Shown: piece by piece, positions 5,278-45,350 of the stretch
Layout: every line of letters starts with the position of its first letter
Numbering within the stretch: the stretch's first letter is position 1
NCBI GenBank assembly: GCA_964607225.1
Contig: CAZSIU010000001.1
Location: 18-64,017, forward strand
Length of the DNA: 64,000 bases
Origin: an uncultured Methanosarcinales archaeon
GTDB taxonomy: Archaea > Nanobdellota > Nanobdellia > Woesearchaeales > GW2011-AR4
Reading direction: 5' to 3'
The notes under the pieces: generated by a model
What the model was told of the DNA's origin: nothing
Databases searched by the model: none
Seen by the model: the letters and a program-made list of their open reading frames with translations, nothing else
Program-made: the position numbers and the translations under genes

Positions 5278-5296
5278 AGCTCCTCGGAAACAAAAG

Positions 5297-5309: not shown

Positions 5310-5327
5310 TTCCTACTGCGAAAGATT

Positions 5328-26092: not shown

Positions 26093-26142
26093 ATACCGAA
26101 ATAATAGTAATATATTTAAGTAATTTGCTATTAACGATAATT

Positions 26143-30124: not shown

Positions 30125-31276
30125 TCATCTTATTTCATACAAAATCCCTCTCAAAGTTTCTTCCGTCAATTTTCTCGGATTATTGTTAACCCTATCTGGA
30201 TTAAAACCATTCCTTATAATTATTTCTATATCTTCATCAGTTTCAATTCCCAATTCAGACAGCTTGGTACTTAAACCAATTTCTTTCATTAGGTTAGTTA
30301 TTTTTTCTGATGCTTCTTCAGCATTACTTGCACCAATTAATTCGACAATTTCTTTAATTGTGTTTTTAACATAATCAACACCTCTTTTGTCTAATAAATC
30401 TTGTTTTGTAACTTGTGAATTGTAAACAATCATAGGAGCAATTGTCAATGCAACTGCATGGCCATGAGGAACATTGAAATAGGATGTTATTGGATAAGAA
30501 ATTGCATGACAAGCAGTTGTTTTTGTAATATTAATTGCATTTCCAGCTAAATGAGCTGCTTTTGTCATTGTTCCTCTTGATATTTCTGAAGAATTATTCA
30601 CTGCTAATGGAATATTTTTAATAATAAGTTTGATTGCCTCTCTTGAATATTTTTTTGATTCGTCAGTTGAATTGATAGACCAGTATGATTCTATAGCTTG
30701 TGATAAAGCATCCATGCCGGTAAAAGCTGTTATATGTGCTGGCAGATTCATCGTAAATTGCGGGTCAACAATCGCATATTCAGGAATAATAAAATTATGG
30801 GTTAAAGTATATTTTACTTTGTCTTTGTATAAAACTGCATATCTTGTTGCTTCGCTGCCTGAACCAGAAGTTGTAGGTATAGCAACTGTAACTTTTCCTT
30901 TATTTTTTATTTTTGTTGGGTTGTTAATATATTCTATGAAAGACTTTTCTTCATTGCTAGCGAATAAATTAACAGCTTTTGCAATATCTAATGTAGTTCC
31001 ACCACCTACAGCTATAACAAAATCACAGTTATTCTTTTTAAATAATTCAAGCCCTTTCTTAATATCATCAAACTTTGGATTTACTTCAAATTCAGTAAAA
31101 TCGACAACATTGTAATTTCTTAGAATTTTGTTGAGTATCTTCTTTGCCCCACATTTTTCATAAGAATTCTTTCCAGTAACCAAAAAAATATTTTTAGGTT
31201 TATGTTTTAGTAATATGTTCCTCAAATTGTTTATAGAATTAAAACCAAAATATTCTTGCTGTCTCATTTTTATCAT
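30125..31276 (-). CDS. Group III iron-containing alcohol dehydrogenase (phosphonoacetaldehyde reductase-like, giving 2-hydroxyethylphosphonate)
   Basis: It has the GGGTTLDIAK motif of the Fe-ADH family and HGHAVALT metal-binding histidines. It is translationally coupled to ppd by an ATGA overlap. Confidence 0.8.
   Translation of the reverse strand: MIKMRQQEYFGFNSINNLRNILLKHKPKNIFLVTGKNSYEKCGAKKILNKILRNYNVVDFTEFEVNPKFDDIKKGLELFKKNNCDFVIAVGGGTTLDIAKAVNLFASNEEKSFIEYINNPTKIKNKGKVTVAIPTTSGSGSEATRYAVLYKDKVKYTLTHNFIIPEYAIVDPQFTMNLPAHITAFTGMDALSQAIESYWSINSTDESKKYSREAIKLIIKNIPLAVNNSSEISRGTMTKAAHLAGNAINITKTTACHAISYPITSYFNVPHGHAVALTIAPMIVYNSQVTKQDLLDKRGVDYVKNTIKEIVELIGASNAEEASEKITNLMKEIGLSTKLSELGIETDEDIEIIIRNGFNPDRVNNNPRKLTEETLRGILYEIR
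30363..30544. repeat. Partner copy of the 182-bp perfect repeat (inside the functional adh)
   Basis: See 27776-27957. Confidence 0.85.
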
Positions 31277-32388
31277 TGAAGAAATTTCATAAAATCTTCC
31301 TTATTCTCTATCGGCGTCTTAGTAGGCCTCCCCAAGTTTTTCCTAGCACCTTTATTTATTATTACTTCTAATAAAATAGGTCCTTCCATTTTACTCATTT
31401 TTCCTACTTTATCAATTATTTCTTCTTTTGTCTCTGCTGAAAAAGCATCTTTATAGCCACAAGCTTTTGCAATCTTAGGAATATTAATATTAAATGCGGC
31501 AGTTGGCTGCCCCCCAACAGAATCGTGAGCATAATTATTAAATACAATATGTTTGAAATTTTTTGGTTTAAGTTGTCCAATTATTGCTAACGCCCCCATA
31601 TGCATAATTAAGGCTCCATCTCCATCAAAACAATAAACGTCTCTATCAGATTTTTTAAGTGCGATTCCCAAGGCAATAGAGGAAGAATGTCCCATACTTC
31701 CCACTGTGAGAAAATCTTTTTCGTGCCCTTGCTTAGTTGCTTCTCTTAGCTCAAAAAGCTCTCTTGACGTTTTTCCTGTAGTTGAAACTACAATATCATC
31801 ATCATGTAGCAGTGGGGCGATGATTTTTATAGCCTCTTCCCTGTTTAATTCATAATTTGTTTTTATTTTATTTTTTAGTTTATATTCCTGGAAAGTTCCT
31901 TTACTGACAACTATTGCATATGGTGATTTTTTATTTTTCATATAATTAATCGCTTCCTTTATTGTATCTTCATAACTATCTTCTAATATTTTATAAGGTA
32001 TTTCCAATGTATCTAATAATTTTAGTGTAATCTTGCCCATCTTAACATGTTGAGGTTCATCTTTTTTTCCTGGCTCGCTTCTCCAACCTATAATAAGTAA
32101 CATGGGTATTGAATAAACATCTGGATCAGCAAGCGACGTAAGAGGATTTACAGCATTTCCTTCTCCGGAATTCTGCATATAAACCAATCCAAACCTCCTA
32201 GTAGCTAGATGATATCCTGCTGCAAGTGCAACTGCATTACCTTCATTAGCTGCAATAATATTTCTTTCATCTGGTGTATTATCAGCAACATAAGCACAAA
32301 AATCTTTAAGTAGAGAATCTGGGACTCCAGTAAAAAAATCAATTTTATTTTCTATTAGTTTATCATAAAAATTTTTACAAGATATCAT
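31273..32388 (-). CDS. ppd: Phosphonopyruvate decarboxylase (thiamine-diphosphate dependent)
   Basis: The N-terminus MISCKNFYDKLIENKIDFFTGVPDSLL and GDGALIMHMGAL (TPP-binding GDG) are present. It lies immediately downstream of the PEP mutase. Confidence 0.85.
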   Translation of the reverse strand: MISCKNFYDKLIENKIDFFTGVPDSLLKDFCAYVADNTPDERNIIAANEGNAVALAAGYHLATRRFGLVYMQNSGEGNAVNPLTSLADPDVYSIPMLLIIGWRSEPGKKDEPQHVKMGKITLKLLDTLEIPYKILEDSYEDTIKEAINYMKNKKSPYAIVVSKGTFQEYKLKNKIKTNYELNREEAIKIIAPLLHDDDIVVSTTGKTSRELFELREATKQGHEKDFLTVGSMGHSSSIALGIALKKSDRDVYCFDGDGALIMHMGALAIIGQLKPKNFKHIVFNNYAHDSVGGQPTAAFNINIPKIAKACGYKDAFSAETKEEIIDKVGKMSKMEGPILLEVIINKGARKNLGRPTKTPIENKEDFMKFLQ

Positions 32389-32414: not shown

Positions 32415-33713
32415 TCATTTACTTCCTGGAATTAATGTGAGCACTTCATTTATTGGCAAGCAATATTTATCTGCTTCATGACATCTTCCGTGTTTCAATA
32501 TAGTTTCTGCTGTTTTTATCATGGCAGGATATGCACTTCTCAGCAAATGATTTGCATAAATTACAATATTTACGCCAGCGTCAATTAATTCTTGCTCTGT
32601 AATAGTGTTATACGTTGTTGGTACTACAACCAAAGGAGCCTTATTCTTAATTTTCTTATATTCTTCACAAAAATCTAAAACTTCTTTTGTATCTTTTTCC
32701 TTGCTATGAATCATTATTCCATCCGCACCTGCATCAATGTAAGCTTTCGCTCTTTTTATTGCGTCATCTACCCCTTTTTTTAATATCAAGCTTTCTATCC
32801 TAGCTATAATCATAAAGTCTTCATTAACCTGAGCTTTTTTTCCTGCCGTTATTTTTCGACAAAAATTTTCTATTGAATCTTGTTGCTGCTCAACTTCTGT
32901 TCCATAAAGTGAATTTCTCTTTGGACCGATTTTATCTTCTATAATCACAGCAGATACTCCAATCCTCTCCAGAGTCTTGACTGTATATACAAAATGCTCA
33001 GCTAAACCACCTGTGTCTCCATCTACAATCATAGGTTTGGTAGTTACCTCAAAAATATTATCTATTGTTTGAAGTCTTGATGTTAAATCTACCAATTCAA
33101 TATCTGGCTTACCTTTGGAAGTCGAATCTGTCAAGCTGCTTTGCCACATTCCGTCAAATTCCCTTACATTATCGTCTTCAACCAATTTGATTTTTTCCAC
33201 TATTCTTCCGGTAAGTCCATTATGAACTTCCATAATCCTTACTAAGGGTTTAAGTTGAAGCAATTTTCTTAATCTCTTAAGTCTAACCTCTGGAGTAGTC
33301 CCTATGTCACTCATTTTATCAATCAATTCTGATGCGGAAACATCCCTTGTAGATTCAGGCTCTACTAGCTTACCGCCCCACTCTTTAAGATATTCTATTA
33401 CTCTTGCTCTAACTCCTTTTTGAATACCTGTTCGCCAGTCTGTGCCGTGTATAACATAGTCTGGCTTAAGTTTTTTAAGGTTGGGGACATAGTCTAAGGT
33501 TTCCTGGGGTATAACTTCACTTACACCCTTAATGTTTTCTATTATTTTTTTCCTCTGTTCGTATGTCAGGAGTGGAAGCCTTTTATAAGTGGCAATAGCC
33601 TCATCTGTCAATAATCCTACAGTTACATTTCCCAATTTTCTTGCTACTTCTATAATATTTATATGTCCATGATGAATTATATCAGTGCTCATTCCTACAT
33701 AAACTTTTTTCAT
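32415..33713 (-). CDS. pepM: Bifunctional N-terminal HxGH cytidylyltransferase / C-terminal phosphoenolpyruvate phosphomutase (Fom1-like architecture)
   Basis: The N-domain reads [13 protein letters not shown]. The C-domain carries [10 protein letters not shown] at residues 259-268, which matches the PepM-specific EDKxxxxxNS motif exactly, plus VDGDTGG. Confidence 0.88.
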
Positions 33714-33716: not shown

Positions 33717-34256
33717 TTAATTCTCCTTTTTGTAAATCTTAATGATTTTATTGACGATGTTCTCAGTTGACAATTTTTCATAGAATGGTGGTTGTATAAC
33801 TTCCCCGTTGATTTTTTTAATATATTTAGCCCCGGGGACTTTTTTCCAGTTTGAACCACAAACTAGAATTAATTTTGCATTTTGAAATTGCTCATGAATT
33901 TTTTTTAAATTTGCTGTAGGATCCAAAGAGTTCTGAACCATAACCATATCTATACATCTAAGAGATGAAACTATGGACTTTCTATCTTTTAAACTAGCAA
34001 TTGGAGCTTCCCTATATGATTTAATTGCATCGTCAGTTAAAACACCACAAACATGAAAATCCCCAAGCTGATTTGCAATCAGCAACGATCTAAGTTGTCC
34101 GTAATGAAAAAGATCTCCTGTAGTAGAACTATAAACGACAGAGTTAATTTTATCTTTTTCAACAGCTACAATATCTCCTTCTTTAATTCCAGAGCCTTTA
34201 GGTATTGTAACACATAACTGACCATTAGATTTATTCGCCCACACTACTTTTTTCAT
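33717..34256 (-). CDS. Small-barrel domain plus TagD-like cytidylyltransferase domain protein
   Basis: TGDLFHYGQLRSLLIANQLGDFHVCGVLTDD aligns to the (H/F)xGH-type CTP-transferase core. Confidence 0.55.
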   Translation of the reverse strand: MKKVVWANKSNGQLCVTIPKGSGIKEGDIVAVEKDKINSVVYSSTTGDLFHYGQLRSLLIANQLGDFHVCGVLTDDAIKSYREAPIASLKDRKSIVSSLRCIDMVMVQNSLDPTANLKKIHEQFQNAKLILVCGSNWKKVPGAKYIKKINGEVIQPPFYEKLSTENIVNKIIKIYKKEN

Positions 34257-35105
34257 TTTCTACTAGTGTTACTAGTGATTGTATTTAAATGTTTCGGTTT
34301 TTATCTGGATTGAAAAGACTCTTTTGATTTCAAATATTGATATATAATATTGATTAAATTGCTACCATATAGAATTATTTTTGTTTGTAATTTTTTTTAT
34401 TTAATTGTGAATAAACTAAAATAATTTCTAGAATTTACACCCATCAAGATCTCTTTTGTCATTTTTACTCATTTTTCATTTCTTTGTTTTTCCCAGACCT
34501 TAACAAAAAAATTTCAACTTCTCAAATAATATCTGTTTTAATTTAACTAATTTGGTAGAAAATGAAAAAAGGCTTATAGAGGCTGGAGTTGCATGTCCAG
34601 TAAATGTTGTTAGGATAGTAGACAAAGAAAAAAATGAAGATATTGTAAGCGTAAAAGTTAGTTAGGATAAAGTCAAAGAAGTTATTGCTGAATATGATCA
34701 TGAAAAGGAATTTGTTATTGATTCAGAAGGTTATTTTTGAATAAGGTTAGACAGAAAAAACAAAAATATAGAGGTTGGTTTCTGCAATGAAAAAAAATAA
34801 GGTTGTTTTAAAAGTTGTTGGCAAAAAGCCAATTGATATTTATCAAACTATATTAAACAAAGAAAAGTTGTCGATAAGGAAAGACCATGCAGCTTATCTT
34901 GGGGAGAATTGCAAAACGCTTATTTTGCTTTGGAATATAATTTAGAATATGTTCAAGATGATGGTGCGGATTTAAATAAGAAATTTAATGAAAAATTTTT
35001 TAAATTCGTTATTTATAGTTAATTGTGATGTATTAAGCTTGTTTTTAATTTATTCTTAAAGAATTTATGAAAATTATTTATGATGAATAATAAAAATTGT
35101 TATAT

Positions 35106-36341
35106 TTAAAACCACCTTGTTGATTCTGTATGGACTCTTTCCAGGCCCTCCTGTCCTGAATACTTGTATATTAATGCAAGATCTTTTAATGGGTCTCCCT
35201 CTTCAGGTTTGATTTCCATTACGATTAATTTTCCTTCCTTATCACCAGTATTCCTAAATGAGTGAGGTACATTTGGTTGAATAAAAAAAGAAGTGCCTGG
35301 TTTCAATATTTGCTCATTACTTCTCCAGAGAAACATAACTGGAGTGTTTCCAACATTATAACCCCAACGGTCTGCATCCACGTTAATATCTAATGTTCTT
35401 TCTTCCTTCACTCTTTTAACAATATATTCAAATGCTTTCGTATGGGGTTGATTTGGGATTCCATTAATTAGTTCTCTCCACTTATAAGCATCATTCTCTT
35501 TTGAGGAGGCATCTTTATTTTTTCTCACTATTACACCCTCAAGTTCATCTGTAACTAGGTTTTCTTCAACTTTGGGTAATTTTTTCTTATAAGAGGATTG
35601 ATAATCATCAAGATCCATAGATTTTATTTTTGTCTGAAATTCATCTGTCGCAACTGCTCCTCCATAAGTAACCGCAAGAATCAATCCCTTTCCCTCTTCA
35701 CGTGTAGTAAAAGTATGAGGAACAAATGGCGTAATATAATTGATGTCTCCAGTATTCATTTTCCGCACGTGTTTATTGCCTTTTTTGTCAATCCAGTAAA
35801 AATTTACCGTCCCAATGAAATAAGTAATTTGATATTCAAAATGGCCTTTGTTAAATGCCCAATCAGGTACATTTGCGTCATTTCCATCATGGACGTAGCG
35901 CTCCACGATCCATTCGGGCCTGAAAGTAGATGTCTTTGACATTGCAGTGTCTCCATAATCATAATATGGAACTTTTTGGCCGTCACTCTGACCCCTCATA
36001 AATGTTCGTTGAGTTTCCTTCCTTTGTTCAGCAGTAAAAATAAGAACACCGTCATTTGTATCATCTTTAATTTTAAACTTATGCCTATGATTAGGATCAA
36101 ATAATTTACGTACATCCAAAGGAGAATGATTATCTACTGCATTAACAATTTCTGATGTTAGGGGTTTTTTCCCGTTCATAACTGCTTCAAGGTAAACTGG
36201 GTCTAAATTGTGTATATCAGCAAAACTAATTGAAGTTTGTTTTACTCCATTTAAAAGGCCTCTGAGTATTGGTCCAGCATTTTTAGCATAAGGGACGTCA
36301 GAAAAATTTTTATTTTCTCTTACTTCCATTTTTTGTTCCAT
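35106..36341 (-). CDS. mpnS: Bi-cupin 2-hydroxyethylphosphonate dioxygenase family; residue pattern favours methylphosphonate synthase (MPnS) over HEPD
   Basis: It has two cupin modules (…PFVPHTF… and …PNVPHSF…). The first-cupin triad is H167-x3-Q171...H209 (2-His-1-Gln). F sits 14 residues and I 36 residues downstream of the first His, matching the Phe162/Ile184 gate recalled for N. maritimus MPnS; HEPD has Tyr/Gly there. A GGAGGT Shine-Dalgarno sequence lies 8 nt upstream. Confidence 0.7.
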   Translation of the reverse strand: MEQKMEVRENKNFSDVPYAKNAGPILRGLLNGVKQTSISFADIHNLDPVYLEAVMNGKKPLTSEIVNAVDNHSPLDVRKLFDPNHRHKFKIKDDTNDGVLIFTAEQRKETQRTFMRGQSDGQKVPYYDYGDTAMSKTSTFRPEWIVERYVHDGNDANVPDWAFNKGHFEYQITYFIGTVNFYWIDKKGNKHVRKMNTGDINYITPFVPHTFTTREEGKGLILAVTYGGAVATDEFQTKIKSMDLDDYQSSYKKKLPKVEENLVTDELEGVIVRKNKDASSKENDAYKWRELINGIPNQPHTKAFEYIVKRVKEERTLDINVDADRWGYNVGNTPVMFLWRSNEQILKPGTSFFIQPNVPHSFRNTGDKEGKLIVMEIKPEEGDPLKDLALIYKYSGQEGLERVHTESTRWF

Positions 36342-36459: not shown

Positions 36460-37239
36460 TTAACTTATTTCTCCTCCAACTCTTAAGAAATCCTGCACAG
36501 TATCAAATTCTTTCCAATTTTTTTGTATTAAAACGCAATAAAGTTTTTCTCCTTTATCTATCATTTCTTGGAAAATATCAGTTATATAGGATTTTTGCCA
36601 TTCTTTTGCATTTTGATACGGATCGGTCATTTTTAATGTTGAATTTAGTCTGTCAAAATATTTTAAGAAAATATTTATTCCTTTAGGGGTAAACTTCCAT
36701 AAGCCGATAAATTCACCTTGTTTATTTTTTGGTACTTTATAAGTAAATATGTGCTTGCCAATCTTTAGCATTCTTTTTTTGTCATTCATTATTATATTTT
36801 CAGCTTCTGAAATTGGATGGTGAGTTCTGCCTTCATAATAATCTTGCCAATCTATATCAACAATAGCAGCTATATCATTTTTATCTTCTAATAATTTCTT
36901 TACCACAATATCATTGTACCATATATCTGAATAACTTATAACGACATCTTCTTTTGATTTTATGGCTTCTTCTAATTTAGCTCTGGCGCACATCAAAGAA
37001 TGAAGAATGTTATTATTCCAGAAATCTGCATTTTCAAAATATGTAATGTTTGTAAAATTTATCTTTTCTTTTTTATAGCCTCTTACTATTGAAATATCTT
37101 CAATTTCATTTTTTCTAAAAAGATCTATAGTATTCTCTAGTATCGGCTTGCCCTCTATCTTCAGCATACATTTTGGCAAGTTATCCGTTATTGGCCTTAG
37201 ACGTGAAGATGGTCCAGCAGCGATGATAATTCCTTTCAT
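36460..37239 (-). CDS. LicC-like nucleotidyltransferase (second copy; candidate phosphonate cytidylyltransferase)
   Basis: MKGIIIAAGPSSRLRPITDNLPKCMLKI is paralogous to 26792-27544. Confidence 0.7.
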   Translation of the reverse strand: MKGIIIAAGPSSRLRPITDNLPKCMLKIEGKPILENTIDLFRKNEIEDISIVRGYKKEKINFTNITYFENADFWNNNILHSLMCARAKLEEAIKSKEDVVISYSDIWYNDIVVKKLLEDKNDIAAIVDIDWQDYYEGRTHHPISEAENIIMNDKKRMLKIGKHIFTYKVPKNKQGEFIGLWKFTPKGINIFLKYFDRLNSTLKMTDPYQNAKEWQKSYITDIFQEMIDKGEKLYCVLIQKNWKEFDTVQDFLRVGGEIS

Positions 37240-37345
37240 ATGACTAACTTGTTTTATCCCAAGTTTACTTAATTTTATTTATAAATCTTTTACCGATAGG
37301 TTTAAATACTATAAATTCGAATTATTTAATAAAGTCTCTTTAGTT

Positions 37346-38209
37346 TTAGAAACTCATTTTTATTTCGTTTTTTCCTCTTAGAAGAAATTCTTTCAAAAAA
37401 GTTATTATCTCATCATCCAATCTTCTTAAGAATTCCGCTTCCCTATCCACTCTCATATATTTTTTTTCACCTAAATAAGTAAATAATTCCCTTATAGAAA
37501 AATCGACAGTCCCATAATTGATAAATGGTCTTCCCATTTCTCCAATCTTTATTACCATTGCTTTGATCATGGCCACTGGATTTAATTTTTTATCAAGCAA
37601 TTTTTCTTTTAGCAGTCTTCTCTGTACAATCATTGGGAAGGTGTTTAAATCAAATTTTATATTCCATACTTTGCTTTTTAATATTTTTTCTCTAAAATTA
37701 AAATTGAATTCCTTGTTTTGTTGTCTTTCCTTGAAAGCAAAAAAATCTATATTATCCCAAAACTCCCAATTTCCTGAGCAAATTGATGAGTGAGGCAAAA
37801 AGAATTGTACTGGTCTTATAAATGTATCAAAATAAATATGGCTTATAAAACTTAAAGTTGCATGTACTTTATTTTGTTCTATCTTCTTTAGTCCTTCGTA
37901 TTTAATCAATTCACAAGCATTATTAAAAAAGTTTATAAATTTTTCTTGATTTTTTTTGATATGCATGTAATAAGATGTATTTTTTGAAAATTTTAGTTTT
38001 TGGTTTGTGAAGACTGCCATTGCAGAGTCTAAAATTTTTGGAAGATTATGTAGATTATGTGTGTATATTTCGAGCTCTTTTCCCAGCAGCGGAATAAAAG
38101 AGTAAATAGCAGAATTTATATCGCAATCACATGCTTTAAGTAATTTTATACTTAATATTCCTCTTGTTAATTCATCCATTTTTAACCTTGTTTTTGCATT
38201 TCTTCCCAT
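37346..38209 (-). CDS. Hypothetical protein (287 aa), no recognisable family; overlaps the downstream AP-family gene by 28 nt
   Basis: It is a long ORF inside a co-directional operon. The start is possibly at M11 (MDELTRG). Confidence 0.45.
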   Translation of the reverse strand: MGRNAKTRLKMDELTRGILSIKLLKACDCDINSAIYSFIPLLGKELEIYTHNLHNLPKILDSAMAVFTNQKLKFSKNTSYYMHIKKNQEKFINFFNNACELIKYEGLKKIEQNKVHATLSFISHIYFDTFIRPVQFFLPHSSICSGNWEFWDNIDFFAFKERQQNKEFNFNFREKILKSKVWNIKFDLNTFPMIVQRRLLKEKLLDKKLNPVAMIKAMVIKIGEMGRPFINYGTVDFSIRELFTYLGEKKYMRVDREAEFLRRLDDEIITFLKEFLLRGKNEIKMSF

Positions 38210-39306
38210 AAATATTTTTCTATTTTAGGTTCCTGTCCTATTAAATTATTTTTTTCTTCTTTGTCATCAATGAGATTATACAATTCTTTCTTTTTATTTG
38301 TCTCATTATATATTAATTTCCACTTGTTTGTTCTCACAGCTTTGATGTTATGTTTCTCTGGAGAAGGCGTTGGTCCATCTAAACCCCCTGTTTCAGAGTA
38401 AGCGACTCTATTTTCTATTATTCCCTTAATAAATGGTAAAAATGATTTTCCACCTATCTTTTTATAATTATCCTCTTCCTTTATTTTTAGTATGTCCAAT
38501 AAAGTTGGTAAAATATCAATACTTCTAATTAAATTATTTATTTGCAGATTTTTAGGAAAGTCCTTTCCAATTAAATATAAAAAGCTTCTTATTGTGTACT
38601 CATAGAGATAAACACCATATGCCCTTTCTCCAACTTTGTCTCCAGTACTGGTCCCATGATCAGTACAAACAAATATAATAGAATCATCATGCAATCCTAA
38701 TTGCTTTATTTTTTCCATAATATCTTTAAGATAATTTGCGCTTTCCCCAACCCATCCAAGGTAATTCTTGAAATTTTTATCTTTATTATTGAAATACTCC
38801 TCATCAAAATCAGAGTATTTTTTTACTACGGTGTTGATCAAATTAACATGTATACTTCCATATCGAAGAAAGAGGAAAAAAGGATTTTTATGTCTTATTT
38901 GGTGCAATATTTCAGTGTGCCTTTTTGAGAAGTTTATATCCTTAAACTCGTCATAAATTCTATATTTATCAAATCCTTGTTGAGGTATGACCCCTTCAAG
39001 ATGTAAATCTGCTTCGGTGTAATAACCATTTTCTTTTACATATTGGGTTAATGTAAAACAATTTTTTTTATCAAAACTATGAATTCTGTAATAACCATTT
39101 ACGCCGTTGAAATTACCATTCATTCCAGAAAATAAGGAGTGTAAAGAAGCTATAGTATATGGTGCGTAGGTAATTAATTTAGGGAAAAAAACAGATTCTT
39201 TTTTGAGTTCTTGGTAATATCGAATTTTATCAATAGAGTCGTACCTAACCCCATCTATAACTATAATTATGATATTTGGTTTTTTTTTCTTAAATAGATT
39301 AATCAT
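38182..39306 (-). CDS. Alkaline-phosphatase-superfamily enzyme (NPP/PhnA/sulfatase-like), cytoplasmic
   Basis: IIVIDGVRYDS (a DGxRxD metal site) and YTIASLHSLFSG resemble the T-x-P-x-H-x-S-x-x-TG nucleophile loop. There is no TM segment and no signal peptide. Confidence 0.65.
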   Translation of the reverse strand: MINLFKKKKPNIIIIVIDGVRYDSIDKIRYYQELKKESVFFPKLITYAPYTIASLHSLFSGMNGNFNGVNGYYRIHSFDKKNCFTLTQYVKENGYYTEADLHLEGVIPQQGFDKYRIYDEFKDINFSKRHTEILHQIRHKNPFFLFLRYGSIHVNLINTVVKKYSDFDEEYFNNKDKNFKNYLGWVGESANYLKDIMEKIKQLGLHDDSIIFVCTDHGTSTGDKVGERAYGVYLYEYTIRSFLYLIGKDFPKNLQINNLIRSIDILPTLLDILKIKEEDNYKKIGGKSFLPFIKGIIENRVAYSETGGLDGPTPSPEKHNIKAVRTNKWKLIYNETNKKKELYNLIDDKEEKNNLIGQEPKIEKYLWEEMQKQG

Positions 39307-39355
39307 TTTTTATATAGTTGAATAATTTAATTATATATAATTTTATTTTAGACTA

Positions 39356-40717
39356 TTAATTTATATATCCTGCTTTCCTCAGAGTTTCTCTTGATTTCTC
39401 AGTAAGATCTGACAAGTTAGTTTGTCCCTCATTGCTTTGTGGTTTTAAAAATTCTAAGATTTTATCTTTCATATAAGAAGCCCTTTCTTTTTCCTTATCA
39501 ATAAGATTATTCTGTTCATTTGGATCATTCGTTAGATTATAGAGCTCAAAAATGTCTTTTTCTGGATGGGGTATATATATAATTTTCCAATCTCCTTCTA
39601 TCATAGCTCTCCATTTTCCCTTGACGCCTGGAAAAAAAATCCTTTTATTTTCCTTAAAGATCTCTTCCATACTTTCAGCAAAAATAAATTTTACTTTATT
39701 TTTTGAATTATTATTAATCAAAGGTAATAAGCTTACTCCGTCGATTTTATCCAATACCGGGATATTAAGCATTTCCAATATGGTTGGCATTATATCCAGT
39801 AGTCTAACTCTTTCTTTAATAACTTTACATCCATCAAAGAATTTCGGATAATTAAATATTAATGGAACTCTTAGGCTTGGTTCGTAAAGTGAAGATCCAT
39901 GTAAAAAATAAAAATTATGTTCTCCAAAATTTTCTCCATGATCAGATGTTAAAATAATTAATGTGTTATCATCTAGACTTTTGGACTTTACAAAATCAAT
40001 TAATCTTCCAAAATGTAAATCAGTATATTTTATACTACCATCGTAATGTGCGATAGCATGACTAATTTCTTCTTTATGAAATTTAATATGACCATACATA
40101 AGTTCCCCCCTAGAAAATTTACCGTGTTTTAAAGTATTAAAATCATGATTTCCTTTATAATTTGGATCAAACGTATGATCATAGGGCTTTGGGATTTCAT
40201 ACGGCCAGTGCATATCATCGAAATGCAGGCATAAGAAAAACTTCTTTTTTGAGTTTTTTTTAATCCATTTAATTGCTACATCTATATATTGCTCGGTAGA
40301 ACTCATAAAATTTCTTGGATTTAGCACTTTTTTTAAGCCTCTCTTAATTTTATTTTTGATTTTCCATGATAGCAAATTAAATTTTTTAAATCCCTTTCTT
40401 AAAGGAGGTTCGTATAATCCAGCGTTGCCCATAAAAGCTGTTTCATATCCATGATTAATAAGTATTTCAGGTAAATGTGTAAAGGAAAAATTTAGATTAT
40501 CATTTTTAACCAACCTTATACCATGAGTGTGTGGATATAATCCAGTAAAAAGAGACATTAGAGAAGGATTTGTTCTTGGTAAAGAAGTGTAAGCATTTAG
40601 AAAACTTGTACCTTGCCTGTAAAAATTATCAATATTTGGACTGGTATTTCTATTATAACCATTTACACTTAAATGATCTGGTCGTAAAGAATCTATTATA
40701 ATTAAAATAATATTCAT
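39356..40717 (-). CDS. Alkaline-phosphatase-superfamily enzyme (sulfatase/NPP-like), cytoplasmic
   Basis: It has IIIDSLRPDHL. SLMSLFTGLYPHTHGI matches the NPP-type ...TGLYPESHGI loop. The canonical sulfatase C/S-x-P-x-R motif is absent. Confidence 0.65.
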   Translation of the reverse strand: MNIILIIIDSLRPDHLSVNGYNRNTSPNIDNFYRQGTSFLNAYTSLPRTNPSLMSLFTGLYPHTHGIRLVKNDNLNFSFTHLPEILINHGYETAFMGNAGLYEPPLRKGFKKFNLLSWKIKNKIKRGLKKVLNPRNFMSSTEQYIDVAIKWIKKNSKKKFFLCLHFDDMHWPYEIPKPYDHTFDPNYKGNHDFNTLKHGKFSRGELMYGHIKFHKEEISHAIAHYDGSIKYTDLHFGRLIDFVKSKSLDDNTLIILTSDHGENFGEHNFYFLHGSSLYEPSLRVPLIFNYPKFFDGCKVIKERVRLLDIMPTILEMLNIPVLDKIDGVSLLPLINNNSKNKVKFIFAESMEEIFKENKRIFFPGVKGKWRAMIEGDWKIIYIPHPEKDIFELYNLTNDPNEQNNLIDKEKERASYMKDKILEFLKPQSNEGQTNLSDLTEKSRETLRKAGYIN

Positions 40718-40862
40718 TTTACGGCAGAATAGAATATCATTTTATATAGTTTTTTGTTTTTCCTGTTTTCATTATCAAAAACAGTTTCCCAAATAGTATA
40801 TTTCATTTATTTATACAGATATATCAACAGATAATTTAAAAAGGTAGGCAAATACACCATTA

Positions 40863-41735
40863 TTGATGAAAAATAAAAAAATCACTTATAAAGAAGTAAG
40901 AGCTATACAGAAAGAGGATATACGCGCAAATAGAATAATATATAGTCATAACAGACATTTTTCTTCTCCATTTACTTATATTTTTATCAAGTTAGGAATT
41001 TCGCCAAACACTATAACAACATTTAATTTTTTTATTCCCATATTAGGATTTATATTTTTATCTTTAGGCACATATCTATCTATTATTGTTGGAATACTTT
41101 TTTTTAATTTATTTTTTATATTTGACCAATCAGATGGAGAAGCTGCAAGACTGCAAAATAGAGGAAGTATTGAGGGGATTTATTTGGATATAATAAACCA
41201 TTACATTTATGGTTGTTGTATAGGATTAGGATTAGGATACGGTCTATCCAGATTATACCATAATGAAATTTATATTGTTCTGGGATTTATCTTAACGCTC
41301 ATTTTTGTTTTGGAATACGCTATTCCGCATGTCCTAAATTCCATAGTTGTGAAGGGGTTGATAGATAATAAGACTTATGATAAAATTGAATCCGTTGATA
41401 AAGTTAGAAAGCTATTGGATAGGTATATTTACGGTGGGCGTTCTTGGGCAAACAGCAACATAATTTCAAAATTAGTAGGAATATACCCATTCCAAGGTCT
41501 GATTTTTTCAGTTCACTTTATACTTCCAATAATATTGATGTTAACTTTGATGGAAATTTTCTTAAGTGCTTCATTTGAATTCCCAATTCTTATTTATGGT
41601 TTGAATATTGGATTAATATCTTCATATTTATTTGTGCTCGCCACATCAAAAATAATCTGGATTATTGGCTATATTTCAAGAATAGTAAGAAATAGGCTTA
41701 TAACTAAATTTTTGATGGCTAGCAAAGATTCTTAA
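40863..41735 (+). CDS. CDP-alcohol phosphotransferase family membrane protein
   Basis: DQSDGEAARLQNRGSIEGIYLDIINH matches D-G-x2-A-R-x8-G-x3-D-x3-(D/H). It has multiple TM helices. Confidence 0.75.
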   Translation: MMKNKKITYKEVRAIQKEDIRANRIIYSHNRHFSSPFTYIFIKLGISPNTITTFNFFIPILGFIFLSLGTYLSIIVGILFFNLFFIFDQSDGEAARLQNRGSIEGIYLDIINHYIYGCCIGLGLGYGLSRLYHNEIYIVLGFILTLIFVLEYAIPHVLNSIVVKGLIDNKTYDKIESVDKVRKLLDRYIYGGRSWANSNIISKLVGIYPFQGLIFSVHFILPIILMLTLMEIFLSASFEFPILIYGLNIGLISSYLFVLATSKIIWIIGYISRIVRNRLITKFLMASKDS

Positions 41736-41808: not shown

Positions 41809-42927
41809 ATGCATATGGTTAAACCTAAAAAAATAAGAATTTTAGTAGTAGCTGAAAAATATGATGATTTCTATGAATGGCTCTCAAAGTTATTAGAAAA
41901 AGAATTTATTGTCAAAAAGCTTTATGTGCATTCAGGTGATGAAAAGCCTCCTTTCTTCCTGTTAAGATGGCTATTGGTGATTAAAAGATGGAGAAGCATA
42001 TCAAAGAGCTTCAAGCCGGAAAAAATTCTTGTATATGGGAAATCCTTGATGTCTATATGGATCGTCATTTTCTTAATTAGACTACTTGGACTAAACACAG
42101 AGATAATAATTTTTAGGTATGATTTTGAATATTTTTGGATGTGTTTTAAGGAGATTAAAAAAACAATTGGTGATAGGATGACTCTAATACTAGAAAAATT
42201 TTGTTTAATTAATTCAGATAAGATAGTTCACAAAGGCATAGAAAATGAGTTAGAGTTTTTACCATATTACGATAAACTAAAGAATAAACCGCACTATTTA
42301 TTCAGAGAATTTATTAATCCAAAAAAAATTCAGATTTATAATCCTAATTTTAAATTATCAAAGAAAGATGGCGAAATACATCTAGTGTACATAGGTGGTT
42401 TTACATCTGTAAATTTACCTGTTGCGGAGTCTATCTGGAATTTCTACCCAAAAATCACAAGCCAGAGACTACATCTGCACTTATACTCCTGGTTTGACAG
42501 AAAGGCAGAAGAAAAATTAAAGGAAATTGAAAATAGAAATCCTTATCTTCATCTTGAAGGAATTAAAGATCATAGTTCGCTTTTAAAAGAGATATGTAAA
42601 TATGACTACGGCATAAGCCTACACACTCGAAATGTTTCCAAGTCAAAAAACAACTATTATGTAGCTGTGCATTTCGCAAAAAAGTTTTTTGATTACCTGT
42701 CTGCAAAATTACCTTTAGTTGTCCTGAAGGAATCAAAGGCTGCTGCAGAATTTGTAGATAAGTACAAGATTGGGGTATGTATAGACTATAAAGATATTAA
42801 ATCTTTACAAAAAATTTTGACTAAAAAAAAGAAAGACTATGAAAAAATTATCAAAAACATCGACAATGCCATTTCAGACTCAATGGAGTGCAAAAAATTT
42901 CTTGATTTTGTAAGAACTCAGAAGTAG
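41809..42927 (+). CDS. Hypothetical protein, possibly a GT-B-like glycosyltransferase
   Basis: The layout is two-domain Rossmann-like (…IRILVV… / …HLVYIGGFTS…). No diagnostic motif is present. Confidence 0.35.
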   Translation: MHMVKPKKIRILVVAEKYDDFYEWLSKLLEKEFIVKKLYVHSGDEKPPFFLLRWLLVIKRWRSISKSFKPEKILVYGKSLMSIWIVIFLIRLLGLNTEIIIFRYDFEYFWMCFKEIKKTIGDRMTLILEKFCLINSDKIVHKGIENELEFLPYYDKLKNKPHYLFREFINPKKIQIYNPNFKLSKKDGEIHLVYIGGFTSVNLPVAESIWNFYPKITSQRLHLHLYSWFDRKAEEKLKEIENRNPYLHLEGIKDHSSLLKEICKYDYGISLHTRNVSKSKNNYYVAVHFAKKFFDYLSAKLPLVVLKESKAAAEFVDKYKIGVCIDYKDIKSLQKILTKKKKDYEKIIKNIDNAISDSMECKKFLDFVRTQK

Positions 42928-42933: not shown

Positions 42934-44751
42934 CTAGGCAACACTAAAGATAACAGCTCCTTGGTTCTGGAAAACAAGCCTGAAAAGCCCAGATTGCGCA
43001 AGTTCTTGTACCTTGCTATTTGAATTGTCTGCTCCAAATTTCCTTACTGCCTGCCCATCAATGATCAAATATTCGTATCCTTTATTTTTTAGCCAATTGT
43101 AGTTTTCTTCGGCAGTCTGGTTAAAACCATTATTCATATAACCTTCAACATCTTTGCACCAATGGCATGTATACAAATCCATGCCAATGACAGGACCGTT
43201 ATTTGAAAACGTAAAAAGCCTGGAATTGCTGGGCAAATTCTGCTTAATCCATATATAAGCCCCTATTTCCTCTCCTGATGTCCAGAAAGCGCCTGGCGGC
43301 CATATAGCAGTATTTACGGCTATTTTCTGCTGGGTAGAGGTAAAATATATTCCTGTCAATAACAGCATAAGAACTGCGTACATGCCAATTTTTCCTGCAG
43401 ACTTTTTTGATATAGCAAGCAGATTAAATGCTCCTTCAGCAGCTAATACACAAATAGGTATTGCTAACAGCATCCATGCCCTAAAAGGGGAAAGCTTTAC
43501 AGGCATATTTGCAGCATTAACTGCATAAAAAGTGAACAAAAACCATACCGAAGTTATTGTGAGCCAGTGATTTTCCTTCTTTAGCAAGCCCTTAAACCTT
43601 ACAAAAATAAATATTATTCCTAATATTGCAAGAATCGATAAAACAATGCCGATACCTATGGGGTTGTTTATCATGTTTTGCTTTTGCGCTATTAGAAAAT
43701 CAGACAACGTATAAGCCCTATCTGCAGTTCCCGGAACGCTTATTATTGATTCTCCTTTACCTATAGCAAGTCCCAATCCCTTTAAAGTACCAGAAAAACC
43801 ATATGTAAAAATCATGGGCAGCCACCATACGGCAAAAGACAAGCCTATGCCCAGAAGGCCTGTAGCTGCATGCCATACTAGAAATTTTCTTTCCAAGATG
43901 ATTTTAGTTATAATATATAAAATAAAAAACAAGCCAAAATAAGTTGAATGTGTGGGGGATGAGGTCAAAACGGTTACCATAAGCAATCCAGAAACAATCC
44001 ACCACTTCTTATCATGCCTTATTCTTTCTATAGCATAGAAAACAACAAAATACAATGGGACGGTCAAAGACAAAGCCCAGATGAAATGTGACATAAATGC
44101 AGGTATGGACAATAAGGCAAAAGCCGCGAACAAAGCCTTGTTCCTGTTGCCTGTAAATTCCTTGACAAAAAAGTAAAAAAATATAGTTGACAAAGAGATT
44201 ATCAGGGCATTAAAAAATTTCAAAGTCCAATGCACGGAATCATTTGTTTGGTGCAGCAAGCCCATCAGCAGATCATAAGCAGGGGGGTAAGGATCGATAT
44301 AATGGAATCTATTGCCGACACCTGCAAAAACAGTTTTCTCAACAGCAACAAATTTTGAACTTATAGCATGTCCCCATGAATCGTCATCCTCTAAATAAGG
44401 ATAAGCAAAAGCTCCTGAAGAGTAAATGTAAAGATTAACAAAAAAAAGAGCAAGCATTGCCAAAATGCTTAAATCTGTTTTCGTCAATTTAAAGGCAAAT
44501 TTGGTTATAGGTTTATTCCTGATTAAATAATATAGTGGATATGCTAATGATAATGCCAGAATAATTTTCCAGTCTATTGGGACTCTGAATAAATTTAAAA
44601 TTAATCCCAAGAAAGGCAGCAAAGAAAGCCCAAAGCCTATCCTCATGAGGTTTCTCTCAAGAAAGTTATCGGAATTCTTTACAAATGAGGATACAGCAAA
44701 GCCTAATCCGTAGGCATATACAAAAAACAAAAGTATGGTTACATAACTCAT
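42934..44751 (-). CDS. Large polytopic membrane protein (GT-C-like), paralogue of 58028-60067
   Basis: It has more than 12 TM helices plus a roughly 150-aa C-terminal soluble domain. It shares a KNSDN(F/L) N-terminal motif and C-terminal similarity with 58028-60067. Confidence 0.5.
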   Translation of the reverse strand: MSYVTILLFFVYAYGLGFAVSSFVKNSDNFLERNLMRIGFGLSLLPFLGLILNLFRVPIDWKIILALSLAYPLYYLIRNKPITKFAFKLTKTDLSILAMLALFFVNLYIYSSGAFAYPYLEDDDSWGHAISSKFVAVEKTVFAGVGNRFHYIDPYPPAYDLLMGLLHQTNDSVHWTLKFFNALIISLSTIFFYFFVKEFTGNRNKALFAAFALLSIPAFMSHFIWALSLTVPLYFVVFYAIERIRHDKKWWIVSGLLMVTVLTSSPTHSTYFGLFFILYIITKIILERKFLVWHAATGLLGIGLSFAVWWLPMIFTYGFSGTLKGLGLAIGKGESIISVPGTADRAYTLSDFLIAQKQNMINNPIGIGIVLSILAILGIIFIFVRFKGLLKKENHWLTITSVWFLFTFYAVNAANMPVKLSPFRAWMLLAIPICVLAAEGAFNLLAISKKSAGKIGMYAVLMLLLTGIYFTSTQQKIAVNTAIWPPGAFWTSGEEIGAYIWIKQNLPSNSRLFTFSNNGPVIGMDLYTCHWCKDVEGYMNNGFNQTAEENYNWLKNKGYEYLIIDGQAVRKFGADNSNSKVQELAQSGLFRLVFQNQGAVIFSVA

Positions 44752-44798: not shown

Positions 44799-45350
44799 CT
44801 ATTTTATTGCAATCACAAAATAAAAGAAAGGCAATTCTCTCTTGCCATAATGTTCAACCTTAAGGTTTCTGAAAATTGAAAATAGCTTTCTCAGAGAATG
44901 TTCTGTAAAGCGCCAATAATCATGAGGCTCGTCATGTAATGGATAGAGAGCAGGCACGAGAACTATGAGCTTTCCATTTTTATTCAATGCCTTATGAAGC
45001 ATCTTAATTCCCTTATGGAAATCAAATACATGCTCTATTACATTAAAGCAAACAATGACATCATATCCTTTAGGTATTTTTTTTGTTATGTCTACTATAG
45101 GATGCTTATATGCAGGGTCTATGTCAGATTTCACAACTTCATTGCCTCTATTCTTAAAAAAGTCAGCAACAGAATATATATGCCTTCCTCTGATGGCTTT
45201 GCCTGAGCCGATTTCAAGAATTTTTTTGCCTCTTATGTTTGAGCAGTATTTCACCAAAATTTTGTTCTTGGCTCTTCCTGGTTGAAAGGCTATGTGGGAG
45301 AGTGAGCGGAAAATGCTCTTTTTGAGTGACATGAACGTGTTTAGACACAA
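44799..45350 (-). CDS. Class I SAM methyltransferase
   Basis: It has ILEIGSGKA and a methyltransferase type 11-like fold. Confidence 0.65.
   Translation of the reverse strand: MCLNTFMSLKKSIFRSLSHIAFQPGRAKNKILVKYCSNIRGKKILEIGSGKAIRGRHIYSVADFFKNRGNEVVKSDIDPAYKHPIVDITKKIPKGYDVIVCFNVIEHVFDFHKGIKMLHKALNKNGKLIVLVPALYPLHDEPHDYWRFTEHSLRKLFSIFRNLKVEHYGKRELPFFYFVIAIK

Follow-up and report, generated by a model that had tools for sequence, protein, structure and literature searches.

The question raised by this locus is whether the genes beside a methylphosphonate synthase gene (mpnS) encode what is needed to activate methylphosphonate (MPn) and to attach it to a carrier. The window, by which we mean the whole 64-kb stretch of DNA analyzed, is a cell-surface glycan island throughout (glycosyltransferases, flippases, and sugar-modifying enzymes), and the labels on the MAGs holding the closest homologues indicate that its host is probably a DPANN (Woesearchaeota/Nanoarchaeota-like) archaeon. 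Pfam and solved-structure matches bear out the gene content that the first-pass annotation had described for positions 36460-41735: all five ORFs lie at the coordinates given there, and since homologues of every one are conserved, a chance origin can be dismissed for all of them. We read this region, with a probability of roughly 0.6, as the half of a phosphonate-based glycan-decoration locus that handles activation and attachment; in such a locus, 2-hydroxyethylphosphonate (HEP) would be converted to MPn, MPn to CMP-MPn, and the activated group then transferred. The region is followed by genes for a Gtf3_C-like glycosyltransferase (41809-42927, plus strand; Pfam annotation of locus L001), a 605-aa protein of no known family with at least 10 transmembrane (TM) segments (42934-44751, minus strand; 60-79% identity in L003, L020, and L021), and a methyltransferase (44799-45350, minus strand; 76% identity in L020); a PDB sequence search with these conserved neighbors gave no match. 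Loci L001, L002, and L004 are duplicates of the window or of L003.

The HEP pathway genes, all on the minus strand and identified by Pfam, encode, in transcription order, a stand-alone cytidylyltransferase-like protein (33717-34256), PepM (32415-33713, with an N-terminal cytidylyltransferase domain, PF01467, and a 10-residue motif), Ppd (31273-32388), and Fe-ADH (30125-31276); they are 61-78% identical to and collinear with those of L020 and L021, where they come directly after the AP2-AP1 pair described below. MpnS (35106-36341, minus strand) belongs to a divergent clade of ~400-aa proteins, matches MPnS (PDB accession number 6B9S) at 2e-59 versus 6e-35 for HEPD, and carries 5/5 MPnS marker residues; across both MPnS clades, H167, Q171, and H209 never vary, and conservation is 90% or more at F181 and I203. 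From the known chemistry of these families, PepM, Ppd, and Fe-ADH would make HEP, which MpnS would convert to MPn. The domain arrangement of PepM is that of Fom1 in the fosfomycin pathway, whose PF01467 domain, fused to the N terminus of PepM, makes CMP-HEP (PMC6697681); unlike Fom1, however, it stands without a Fom3/Fom4 context, and HEP presumably serves MPn synthesis and/or glycan decoration.

Immediately upstream of mpnS lies the gene for NT1 (36460-37239, minus strand), a LicC/PntC-like nucleotidyltransferase (Pfam NTP_transferase, 4.7e-12) whose closest solved relative is LicC (1JYK, 1e-11). Cytidylyl activation predominates in phosphonate tailoring (PMC6697681), and in the Lic/Pnt systems (LicC, PntC, and LicD; Rice et al. 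2019, PMC6697681), as proposed here, a LicC-family enzyme cytidylylates a small phospho(no)-compound that is then transferred to a surface glycan. NT1 keeps Arg13 and the Pro-Lys of the motif GxG(T/S)R-x4-8-PK, although its own version reads GPSSR; the window further differs in lacking a LicD-type transferase, which leaves a CDP-alcohol phosphotransferase and AP-superfamily proteins as transfer candidates, and in its presumed substrate, MPn, which has no amine, in place of AEP or phosphocholine. The paralogue noted previously at 26792-27544 (NT2, minus strand) is indeed another LicC-like nucleotidyltransferase and shares 30% identity with NT1 over the full length. A ppd/adh gene fossil at 27544-28167 abuts NT2.

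The association of NT1 with mpnS recurs in four separate locus types: the two genes adjoin in the window, in L008, and in L108/L109, and P0304 is a natural 623-aa NT1::MpnS fusion (40% identity in the NT1 part, 52% in the MpnS part), its gene followed by one for a TagF-type CDP-dependent phosphotransferase, a type also present in L108. In eight mpnS-less loci (among them L003, L006, L009, L010, L011, and L024), NT1 instead lies beside a PhnD-type binding protein of the phosphonate-binding family PF12974, accompanied in the six named loci by an ABC transporter, and in L012, L015, and L016, a small cytidylyltransferase takes the place of NT1. Across eight loci NT1 is 75-79% identical, whereas the adjacent 287-aa protein is only 46-71% identical; the constancy of NT1 between loci with and without mpnS suggests one substrate. 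Given the similarity to LicC/PntC, the adjacency to mpnS, and the fusion, we infer that NT1 is a CTP:methylphosphonate cytidylyltransferase, which would convert MPn and CTP to CMP-MPn, with MpnS as the presumed source of its substrate; a route in which NT1 acts on HEP and MpnS on CMP-HEP fits the fusion and the adjacency equally well. The context (mpnS, P0304, and the PhnD-type neighbor) ties NT1 to a phosphonate and not to a sugar-1-phosphate.

The 287-aa ORF next to NT1 (Unk, minus strand) reaches 38209 when called mechanically, but its homologues begin at Met11, which corresponds to coordinate 38179; the gene is therefore more likely 37346-38179, and with this start its apparent overlap with AP1 is gone. 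The product is a soluble protein with a confident all-alpha predicted model. It had been described as belonging to no recognizable family, and it still does: Pfam and NCBIfam profile searches gave no match, nor did comparison of the model with solved structures. Its 61 homologues (41-71% identity) form a small family, carried only by DPANN-labeled MAGs and unnamed metagenome contigs and apparently restricted to DPANN. A nucleotidyltransferase is always present with Unk. More distant relatives occur with an aminotransferase, a small cytidylyltransferase, an SDR protein, and cytidylate kinase, with no pepM nearby, and the His/Asp conserved in them are not conserved in the subfamily to which the window's Unk belongs. 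The first-pass annotation singled out this ORF as a prime candidate for MPn attachment, but the Nitrosopumilus-type cluster L106 has no Unk gene, so that Unk cannot be a general MPn-attachment enzyme. Our tentative view is that it is an obligate nucleotidyltransferase partner, serving as an adaptor without catalytic activity or as a subunit that handles substrate.

For the transfer itself, the locus offers two candidate systems, a CDP-alcohol phosphotransferase and a pair of AP-superfamily proteins. Neither is universal, since the former is absent from the Nitrosopumilus-type locus and the latter from L107, where genes for a cytidylate kinase and two transferases of the CDP-OH type accompany mpnS. 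The CDP-alcohol phosphotransferase (CDPOH; 40863-41735, plus strand, from a TTG start, or from ATG at 40866; PF01066, 9e-8) is transcribed divergently from AP2, as are relatives of 39-41% identity beside AP2 in L003, L021, and L024. Its six hydrophobic segments mark it as a six-TM membrane protein, and it matches AF2299 (4O6M) at 1e-9. With AF2299 and IPCT-DIPPS it shares a multi-TM architecture and the signature D-x2-D-G-x2-A-R-x8-G-x3-D, in a family that often works with a cytidylyltransferase; it differs in having no fused cytoplasmic domain, in its glycan/phosphonate gene context, in scoring far below the cut-offs for archaetidylinositol-phosphate and DIPP synthases, and in its last motif Asp, which is His (DQSDGEAAR-x8-G-x3-D-x3-H), a replacement shared by 11 of the 17 related sequences (9 of 15 once duplicates are set aside). 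The fourth Asp of CDP-alcohol phosphotransferases is the proposed catalytic base, and with His in its place the activity of CDPOH is not guaranteed. A housekeeping archaetidyl-lipid synthase, an identity that would have counted against the first-pass reading, is ruled out (best NCBIfam match, 33 bits, where the cut-off is 180). If active, the His variant would work at the cytoplasmic face of the membrane, where it would release CMP and place the methylphosphonyl group on a hydroxyl, either of a lipid or of a glycan linked to one.

The AP-superfamily pair consists of AP2 (39356-40717, minus strand; Pfam Sulfatase, 6e-54) and the shorter AP1 (38182-39306, minus strand; Pfam Sulfatase, 9e-21). 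Both had been credited with an NPP-type loop, but the scaffold is the S1-sulfatase fold and not that of NPP. That they are no true sulfatases holds up: where solved sulfatases have the Cys/Ser that becomes formylglycine, both have Thr, with Leu for the motif Arg. In AP2 this is Thr49 (TNPSL versus CxPxR; candidate metal ligands D9 and D259-H260), and in AP1 it is the Thr of APYTIASL, which aligns to the Cys of 6HR5 and is accompanied by D18 and a DHG motif. Among AP2 relatives the nucleophile column holds Thr in 22 and Ser in 18, Cys in 0/40, and the +4 column holds Arg in 0/40. Nor, as also claimed, is there an export signal: hydropathy reveals no TM segment in either protein, and with the catalytic Asp at residue 9 (AP2) or 18 (AP1) there is no room for a signal peptide. 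The pair thus departs from S1 formylglycine sulfatases and phosphonate monoester hydrolases (PMHs; 6HR5 and 4UPK) in lacking both the C/S-x-P-x-R maturation motif (Thr/Ser for Cys, a hydrophobic residue for Arg) and export. EptA/MCR-1, LtaS/LtaP, BcsG, and GacH, in contrast, have an N-terminal membrane domain and act outside the membrane with phospholipid donors, whereas AP1 and AP2, both soluble proteins of the cytoplasm, retain the S1-sulfatase C-terminal subdomain and in structure are nearer to sulfatases. Most likely, the pair would transfer a phosphonyl group by way of a Thr to which it is covalently bound in passing, the mechanism by which EptA, LtaS, and BcsG transfer phospho-headgroups. 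The group could come straight from CMP-HEP or CMP-MPn, or from what CDPOH produces, although no AP-superfamily enzyme is known to use a nucleotide-phosphonate donor.

Gene neighborhoods point the same way. AP1 always occurs paired with AP2; its orthologues (65-70% identity in L003, L020, L021, and L022, 43% in L106) all keep the D, T, and DHG. AP2-AP1 immediately precedes CTL-pepM-ppd-adh in L020 and L021, the pair stands at the head of pepM-ppd-adh operons without mpnS in a Tara Oceans contig and a Woesearchaeota MAG, and in L106 it flanks mpnS. In two archaeal lineages (DPANN-labeled and Nitrosopumilus-type), no other partner of HEP/MPn operons is as well conserved, and no phosphonate genes were found near generic sulfatase relatives (<36% identity). 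We assign the pair primarily to the HEP/MPn biosynthetic module.

The five genes had been presented as one activation and transfer set, but in other loci they come apart, and the block is pieced together from several modules that are not inherited as one. Where mpnS is absent, AP2-AP1 accompanies pepM-ppd-adh, in some cases together with the CDP-alcohol transferase; Unk-NT1 accompanies the importer; and in other lineages, mpnS-NT1 is partnered by a TagF-like transferase instead. The order in the window is that of the AP2-AP1-pepM-ppd-adh operon of L020/L021, with Unk-NT1-mpnS between AP1 and the pepM group.

The MPn gene cluster of Nitrosopumilus maritimus (Metcalf et al. 2012), as cited in PMC9381506 and PMC8942020, resembles the window in having genes for PepM, Ppd, Fe-ADH, MpnS, and a LicC-like nucleotidyltransferase, together with a pair of "sulfatase" genes (~460 and 372 aa). 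In L106, whose MPnS matches that of N. maritimus with 688 bits, both sulfatase-like proteins have Thr at the nucleophile, the shorter being the AP1 orthologue. The window differs in its MpnS, only 32-33% identical to the canonical enzyme, in the N-terminal domain of PepM, in its probably DPANN host, and in adding Unk and the CDP-alcohol phosphotransferase, both absent from L106. Nucleotidyltransferases and an "arylsulfatase" beside mpnS have been discussed for N. maritimus and marine genomes as implying MPn esters (PMC9381506, citing Metcalf 2012), and hence the general idea is not new.

Four other explanations were weighed. It is unlikely that AP1 and AP2 are cytoplasmic phosphonate-monoester/diester hydrolases or nucleotide-phosphonate pyrophosphatases that edit, recycle, or detoxify CMP-phosphonates and mis-made esters, with attachment left to CDPOH or to TagF-like enzymes elsewhere. 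The NCBIfam PehA match (3.7e-40, though far below its cut-off) and the mpnS loci L104 and L107, which have CDP-dependent transferases and no soluble AP pair, fit such a role, but PMHs use formylglycine, PMH matches carry the sulfatase-family annotation, and the Thr/Ser nucleophile is that of the transferases EptA, LtaS, and BcsG. Moreover, within 10 kb in L106 and in the DPANN locus L020, the pair is the sole transferase candidate apart from a nucleotidyltransferase, and enzymes that break down the activated product of their own pathway would make an odd first gene pair in a biosynthetic operon. That AP1 and AP2 desulfate glycans is hardly credible and already largely refuted: the Pfam Sulfatase and SGSH_C matches, the fold, and the occurrence in L021 of an APS kinase gene close by are outweighed by the missing Cys and Arg, an NCBIfam arylsulfatase score of 198 bits against a cut-off of 481, the cytoplasmic location, and the consistent link to phosphonate genes, which generic sulfatases lack.

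The product could also be a phosphonolipid, CDPOH placing MPn or HEP on a lipid alcohol as end product or as donor for the AP enzymes, much as eukaryotic choline/ethanolamine phosphotransferases use CMP-AEP on lipid alcohols. Lipid head groups are the classic product of CDP-alcohol phosphotransferases, inositol-phosphate lipid synthases and AF2299 are the best family matches of CDPOH, and the mpnS-NT1 loci L008 and L108 carry 622- to 626-aa AP-family proteins with 5-6 N-terminal TM helices, the lipid-donor architecture of LtaS/EptA. We nevertheless consider this unlikely, as the whole window is a glycan island and DPANN archaea generally lack lipid synthesis of their own. In the environment, MPn and HEP are reported to be present as polysaccharide esters, and mpnS neighborhoods suggest ester synthesis (PMC9381506). 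Very unlikely, finally, is a Lic-like salvage of an ordinary phospho-alcohol (phosphocholine, phosphoethanolamine, or glycerol phosphate) by Unk, NT1, and CDPOH, with mpnS nearby by chance. The kinship of NT1 to the phosphocholine enzyme LicC, the importer without mpnS in most Unk-NT1 loci, and the pepM-free surroundings of distant Unk relatives would suit it, but no kinase accompanies Unk-NT1, the importer's binding protein is of a phosphonate-binding family, NT1 is fused to MpnS and beside mpnS in three further arrangements, and its near-constant sequence suggests one substrate.

Our preferred reading thus remains that this region most likely encodes the enzymes for the CTP-dependent activation of methylphosphonate and for its linkage to glycans of the cell surface. 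This is a step behind a major marine methane precursor, and its enzymes have so far been uncharacterized.

All five genes of the block that the first-pass annotation had picked out at 36460-41735 are present, and the families that it had assigned to them are the same in Pfam. On the minus strand, the ORF listing places the nucleotidyltransferase gene NT1 (36460-37239; NTP_transferase/NTP_transf_3), Unk, a 287-aa ORF without a match in Pfam or NCBIfam (37346-38209), and two genes of the alkaline-phosphatase (AP) superfamily, AP1 (38182-39306) and AP2 (39356-40717), both with Sulfatase and SGSH_C domains; the CDP-alcohol phosphotransferase gene, CDPOH (40863-41735; CDP-OH_P_transf), lies on the plus strand, divergent from AP2. 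Beyond NT1, also on the minus strand, are an mpnS-like gene (35106-36341; matching 6B9S) and, after an 850-bp spacer, the genes for a small cytidylyltransferase-like protein (33717-34256), PepM (32415-33713), Ppd (31273-32388), and an iron alcohol dehydrogenase (adh; 30125-31276). The spacer (34257-35105), which separates mpnS from the cytidylyltransferase-pepM genes, is AT-rich, has a largest ORF of at most 56 aa, and matches neither an Rfam family nor any protein of the related loci; it may be a rearrangement junction or an internal promoter region. The remainder of the 64-kb window is given over to glycan biosynthesis, with GT2 and GT4 glycosyltransferases, B12-radical-SAM enzymes, DegT aminotransferases, PMT_2-type membrane transferases, Polysacc_synt flippases, and sugar epimerases and dehydratases. 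The window yielded neither a tRNA nor a taxonomic marker.

Several other features accompany the phosphonate genes. An SDR gene and a radical-SAM/SPASM gene (28180-29821, minus strand) sit between adh and a gene fossil, and their relatives recur in loci containing Unk (the SDR in L014 and L019, the SPASM enzyme in L006, where it lies immediately upstream of Unk; L-numbers denote related loci in other genomes and metagenomes). The fossil itself (27544-28167, minus strand) abuts the start of NT2, a paralogue of NT1, and joins an N-terminal piece of Ppd (aa 1-110, 45-65% identity to intact copies) to a C-terminal piece of the alcohol dehydrogenase (aa 245-383, 74% identity to the intact copy at 30125-31276). 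It resembles what a second ppd-adh copy would leave behind after an internal deletion and, thus, points to recombination in this locus. A LicA/LicC-like group, comprising genes for an APH-family kinase-like protein (25013-26092), a HAD hydrolase (26035-26799, opposite strand), and NT2 (26792-27544), may form a separate phospho-alcohol activation branch.

Judged by its sequence markers, the phosphonate pathway adjoining the five genes is genuine. The cupin protein of the window matches the Nitrosopumilus maritimus methylphosphonate synthase (MPnS; 6B9S) at 2e-59 and HEPD, more weakly, at 6e-35. Aligned to 6B9S, it carries all five residues that we take to distinguish MPnS, namely, the 2-His-1-Gln iron ligands H148, Q152, and H190 together with F162 and I184, which fix the Gln (N. 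maritimus numbering); Born et al. (2017) is reportedly the source of these criteria. When 37 sequences from the two clades of the enzyme are aligned, the iron ligands never vary, and at least 90% have the Phe and the Ile. The window protein belongs to a clade of about 400 aa, whose members (the P0292-P0356 set) are 40-68% identical to it, and shares only 32-33% identity with the canonical clade of about 455 aa. Named members of the shorter clade are few and come from Woesearchaeota and Patescibacteria (a single sequence so labelled). We found no paper tying MpnS to DPANN. Since DPANN, and apparently Patescibacteria as well, have a clade that retains every catalytic marker, potential methylphosphonate (MPn) producers may be more varied than those on a published list (PMC9381506). 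The product of 32415-33713 contains EDKxxxxxNS, the motif that defines PEP mutases (PMC6697681), and its N terminus is a PF01467 domain of the Fom1 type, which in fosfomycin biosynthesis makes the CMP conjugate of 2-hydroxyethylphosphonate (HEP), CMP-HEP (PMC6697681).

Comparison with related loci shows that the five-gene block splits into modules that travel separately. Unk adjoins a nucleotidyltransferase gene in every locus, this being NT1 in nearer relatives and a small PF01467 enzyme in distant ones. Its commonest arrangement (L003, L006, L009, L010, L011, L012, L015, and L016) reads Unk, nucleotidyltransferase, PhnD-family binding protein, ABC ATPase, permease, and second nucleotidyltransferase; in L005 and L013, an MFS transporter takes the place of the ABC importer. 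The operon from first to second nucleotidyltransferase occurs without a preceding Unk in L024 and L108 (Unk being present in 8 of 10 operon loci), and L003 and L006 have a methyltransferase and a metallophosphoesterase as well. Many relatives have a PhnD-type importer in place of biosynthesis, an arrangement that suggests uptake and cytidylyl activation of environmental phosphonate for surface decoration. More distant Unk loci (L014 4932-9990 and L017-L019) combine Unk with a 450- to 477-aa aminotransferase, a small PF01467 cytidylyltransferase, an SDR, and a CDP-OH transferase, with a cytidylate-kinase-like gene in L014 and pepM not nearby, which may mean a related pathway serving a different head group.

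The AP pair follows a different distribution. In L020, from a Woesearchaeota MAG, and L021, on a Tara Oceans contig, AP2-AP1 comes immediately before the cytidylyltransferase gene, pepM, ppd, adh, and a nucleotidyltransferase gene, and mpnS, Unk, and NT1 are missing; the window copies of the shared genes are 61-79% identical to those of the two loci. By this comparison, the window has the order of an L021-type HEP operon with Unk-NT1-mpnS placed between AP1 and the pepM group, through either insertion in the window or loss elsewhere. Relatives of CDPOH (39-41% identity) stand divergently beside AP2 in L003, L021, and L024. The Nitrosopumilus-type locus L106, where comparison of MPnS with the N. 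maritimus enzyme gives 688 bits, runs AP2-like gene, mpnS, AP1 orthologue, NT1-like nucleotidyltransferase, ppd, pepM, and adh; both of its AP proteins carry the Thr discussed below, and no Unk, CDP-OH, LicD, or TagF gene lies within 10 kb. In L107, two CDP-OH transferases and a cytidylate kinase accompany mpnS, and the AP pair is absent. Another gene near the pair, at 42934-44751 on the minus strand, encodes a 605-aa protein with at least 10 transmembrane segments and no match in Pfam, NCBIfam, or the PDB; since it is retained at 60-79% identity in L003, L020, and L021, it is a conserved neighbor of the AP pair and could be an acceptor-side membrane enzyme. L021 also has an APS kinase gene and a PHP-domain gene (4826-6230) a few kilobases from CDPOH, AP2, and AP1.

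Set against the LicC/PntC signature GxG(T/S)R-x4-8-PK (PMC6697681), NT1 reads G-P-S-S-R-x8-P-K, with the Arg and Lys retained and the third Gly replaced by Ser. Its best PDB match is LicC (1e-11, covering the N-terminal 90 residues only), and it is 75-79% identical across eight loci, in which Unk is just 46-71% identical. Its gene adjoins mpnS in the window, L008, and L108/L109, and in Hainich groundwater metagenomes an NT1-like nucleotidyltransferase and MpnS form a single 623-aa polypeptide (P0304), encoded at 390-2261 of L104 and 1221-3092 of L105. Downstream of the fusion gene lie genes for a TagF-type CDP-dependent phosphotransferase (glycerophosphotransferase family) and then a GT2 enzyme. 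The gene context (the fusion and the neighboring PhnD-type importer) makes a phosphonate or phospho-alcohol the candidate substrate of NT1, with CTP as the putative nucleotide.

For Unk, we recovered 61 homologues, which share 41-71% identity with it and almost all measure about 266 aa; because they begin at Met11 of the window protein, its start is likely 38179 and the gene 37346-38179. A search with the Unk profile through 1.84 billion representative proteins gave only 110 members, all of similar length and none fused to another domain, and the genome matches are to DPANN-labelled MAGs only. An apparent fusion of 3,832 aa is a low-complexity artifact. Distant members carry the His/Asp-rich motifs MDxxTH, DRxPxYxHR, and SHxYxDxFNNPxQ, several residues of which are not kept in the window's own subfamily. 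The S-H-x-Y-x-D motif alone gives a signal for YdjM (PF04307) in 13 of 62 members, always below threshold (the best hit reaches 6.6e-4 and 19.6 bits, where the cut-off is 29). With hhalign, Unk against Escherichia coli YdjM reaches an insignificant probability of 8.5% over 23 columns, and the Unk profile does not match the genuine YdjM protein of L108. Given these scores and the putative ligands missing from the window subfamily, we reject a YdjM/PLC-like metal hydrolase as anything beyond a lead and treat Unk as a new protein family.

AP1 and AP2 are built on a sulfatase scaffold bearing the Thr/Ser nucleophile typical of AP-superfamily phosphotransferases. They have the S1-sulfatase alpha/beta fold with its C-terminal subdomain, and structural comparison gives scores of 38-30 for S1 sulfatases, 33.9 for phosphonate monoester hydrolase, 32.7 for YejM, 29-28 for LtaP/LtaS, 27.9 for EptC, about 25 for EptA/MCR-1, and 24-20 for NPPs. 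The first-pass annotation had noted an NPP-type loop; the pair does have the Thr nucleophile of NPPs, but the NPP fold is not its closest structural class. Aligned to solved sulfatases, the formylglycine position reads T-N-P-S-L in AP2 and T-I-A-S-L in AP1, with Leu in place of the motif Arg. Among 40 relatives of AP2, the nucleophile column holds 22 Thr, 18 Ser, and no Cys, position +4 is always hydrophobic and never Arg, and D9, H15, H170, D259, H260, and H273 are invariant; AP1 orthologues retain the Asp, the Thr, and the DHG motif. Both proteins fall far below the curated arylsulfatase cut-off of 481 bits (AP2, 198; AP1, 80) and below those of choline-sulfatase families. Neither has a hydrophobic segment, and with the catalytic Asp at residue 9 (AP2) or 18 (AP1), there is no space for a signal peptide. 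On motif, family cut-offs, localization, and gene context, we reject the reading of the pair as true sulfatases, which the first-pass annotation had already judged unlikely from the loop, the lack of the C/S-x-P-x-R motif, and the missing export signal. An AP2-profile scan of metagenomes returned mostly generic sulfatases (27-36% identity) without phosphonate genes nearby, which we use as a negative control only, and we found no functional study of AP1/AP2-type sulfatase-like proteins.

CDPOH, a membrane protein, exceeds the Pfam cut-off for PF01066 (33 bits versus 22). Of the family motif D-x2-D-G-x2-A-R-x8-G-x3-D-x3-D, it keeps D-x2-D-G-x2-A-R-x8-G-x3-D and has His for the last Asp, so that the profile places it in the family while its motif is a variant. 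The His variant occurs in 11 of 17 related sequences of these loci (9 of 15 distinct), one of them adjoining mpnS in L107. The best solved relative is AF2299. Clustering with housekeeping archaetidyl-lipid synthases would have spoken against a role in phosphonate transfer; the best NCBIfam score of this kind (archaetidylinositol-phosphate synthase) is 32.8 bits against a cut-off of 180, and CDPOH does not group with them.

MPn esterified to polysaccharide is regarded as a main methane source in oxygenated ocean water (PMC9381506), and the attachment of MPn or HEP is, in this sense, a biogeochemically relevant question. Rice et al. established that phosphonate tailoring relies predominantly on cytidylyl activation and call the subsequent steps enigmatic (PMC6697681), and Li and Horsman mention phosphonate clusters rich in sulfatases (PMC8942020). 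Lockwood et al. take genes in the mpnS neighborhood as implying (methyl)phosphonate esters, in agreement with Metcalf 2012 on N. maritimus (PMC9381506). The idea of joint activation and attachment genes in the first-pass annotation thus rediscovers a published hypothesis; as applied to this block, it survives in part, its enzymes staying candidates and its modules not forming one set. What is new is the Thr/Ser-nucleophile character of the AP pair and its conservation across lineages, as well as the NT1::MpnS fusion, the Unk family, the His-variant CDP-alcohol transferase, and the DPANN setting. The locus and its relatives shorten the list of candidates for attaching MPn or HEP to glycans to a highly conserved LicC-like enzyme naturally fused to MpnS (NT1), a Thr-nucleophile sulfatase-fold pair common to Nitrosopumilus-type and DPANN clusters, and a subfamily of CDP-alcohol phosphotransferases whose fourth motif position is occupied by His (CDPOH).

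Drawing on family memberships, active-site residues, predicted localization, synteny, and the fusion, we propose a route in which NT1 would form cytidylyl-activated MPn (CMP-MPn) and a CMP-releasing phosphotransferase, of the CDP-alcohol family in the window and TagF-like elsewhere, would esterify MPn onto a lipid or lipid-linked glycan, while the AP pair would move a phosphonyl group with its Thr as the covalent carrier. The strongest argument for the AP pair as a candidate transferase is that it is the sole one in L106 and L020. Its active site shares with the PEtN and phosphoglycerol transferases EptA, LtaS, and BcsG a Thr/Ser nucleophile and an Asp/Glu plus Asp-His metal site (D9, D259, and H260 are invariant in the AP2 family, and T49 is Thr or Ser), whereas those enzymes have N-terminal multiple transmembrane segments and an extracytoplasmic catalytic domain that AP1 and AP2 lack. 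The nearest structural relatives of the pair are hydrolases, and AP1 and AP2 as hydrolases rather than transferases are, thus, a live alternative. AP-family proteins of 622-626 aa with 5-6 N-terminal transmembrane helices, resembling LtaS and EptA, are encoded in L008 (6543-8423, minus strand) and L108 (15659-17527), which are loci with mpnS and NT1 and no soluble AP pair; the L108 protein has Ser at the aligned nucleophile position. These membrane-anchored proteins keep a two-step route via a phosphonolipid in play.

In the boldest reading, to which we give roughly three chances in ten, the pair AP2-AP1 would found a new class of phosphonyl transferases that work in the cytoplasm, with Thr in place of formylglycine on a sulfatase scaffold, passing HEP or MPn from a CMP-phosphonate or phosphonolipid through a covalent Thr to a sugar hydroxyl; the two would be the missing enzymes of marine HEP- and MPn-polysaccharide esters, and the activating cytidylyltransferase would have in Unk a partner with a new fold. 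If this is true, Nitrosopumilus-type and DPANN archaea would have one solution in common for the HEP and MPn esters of marine dissolved organic matter.
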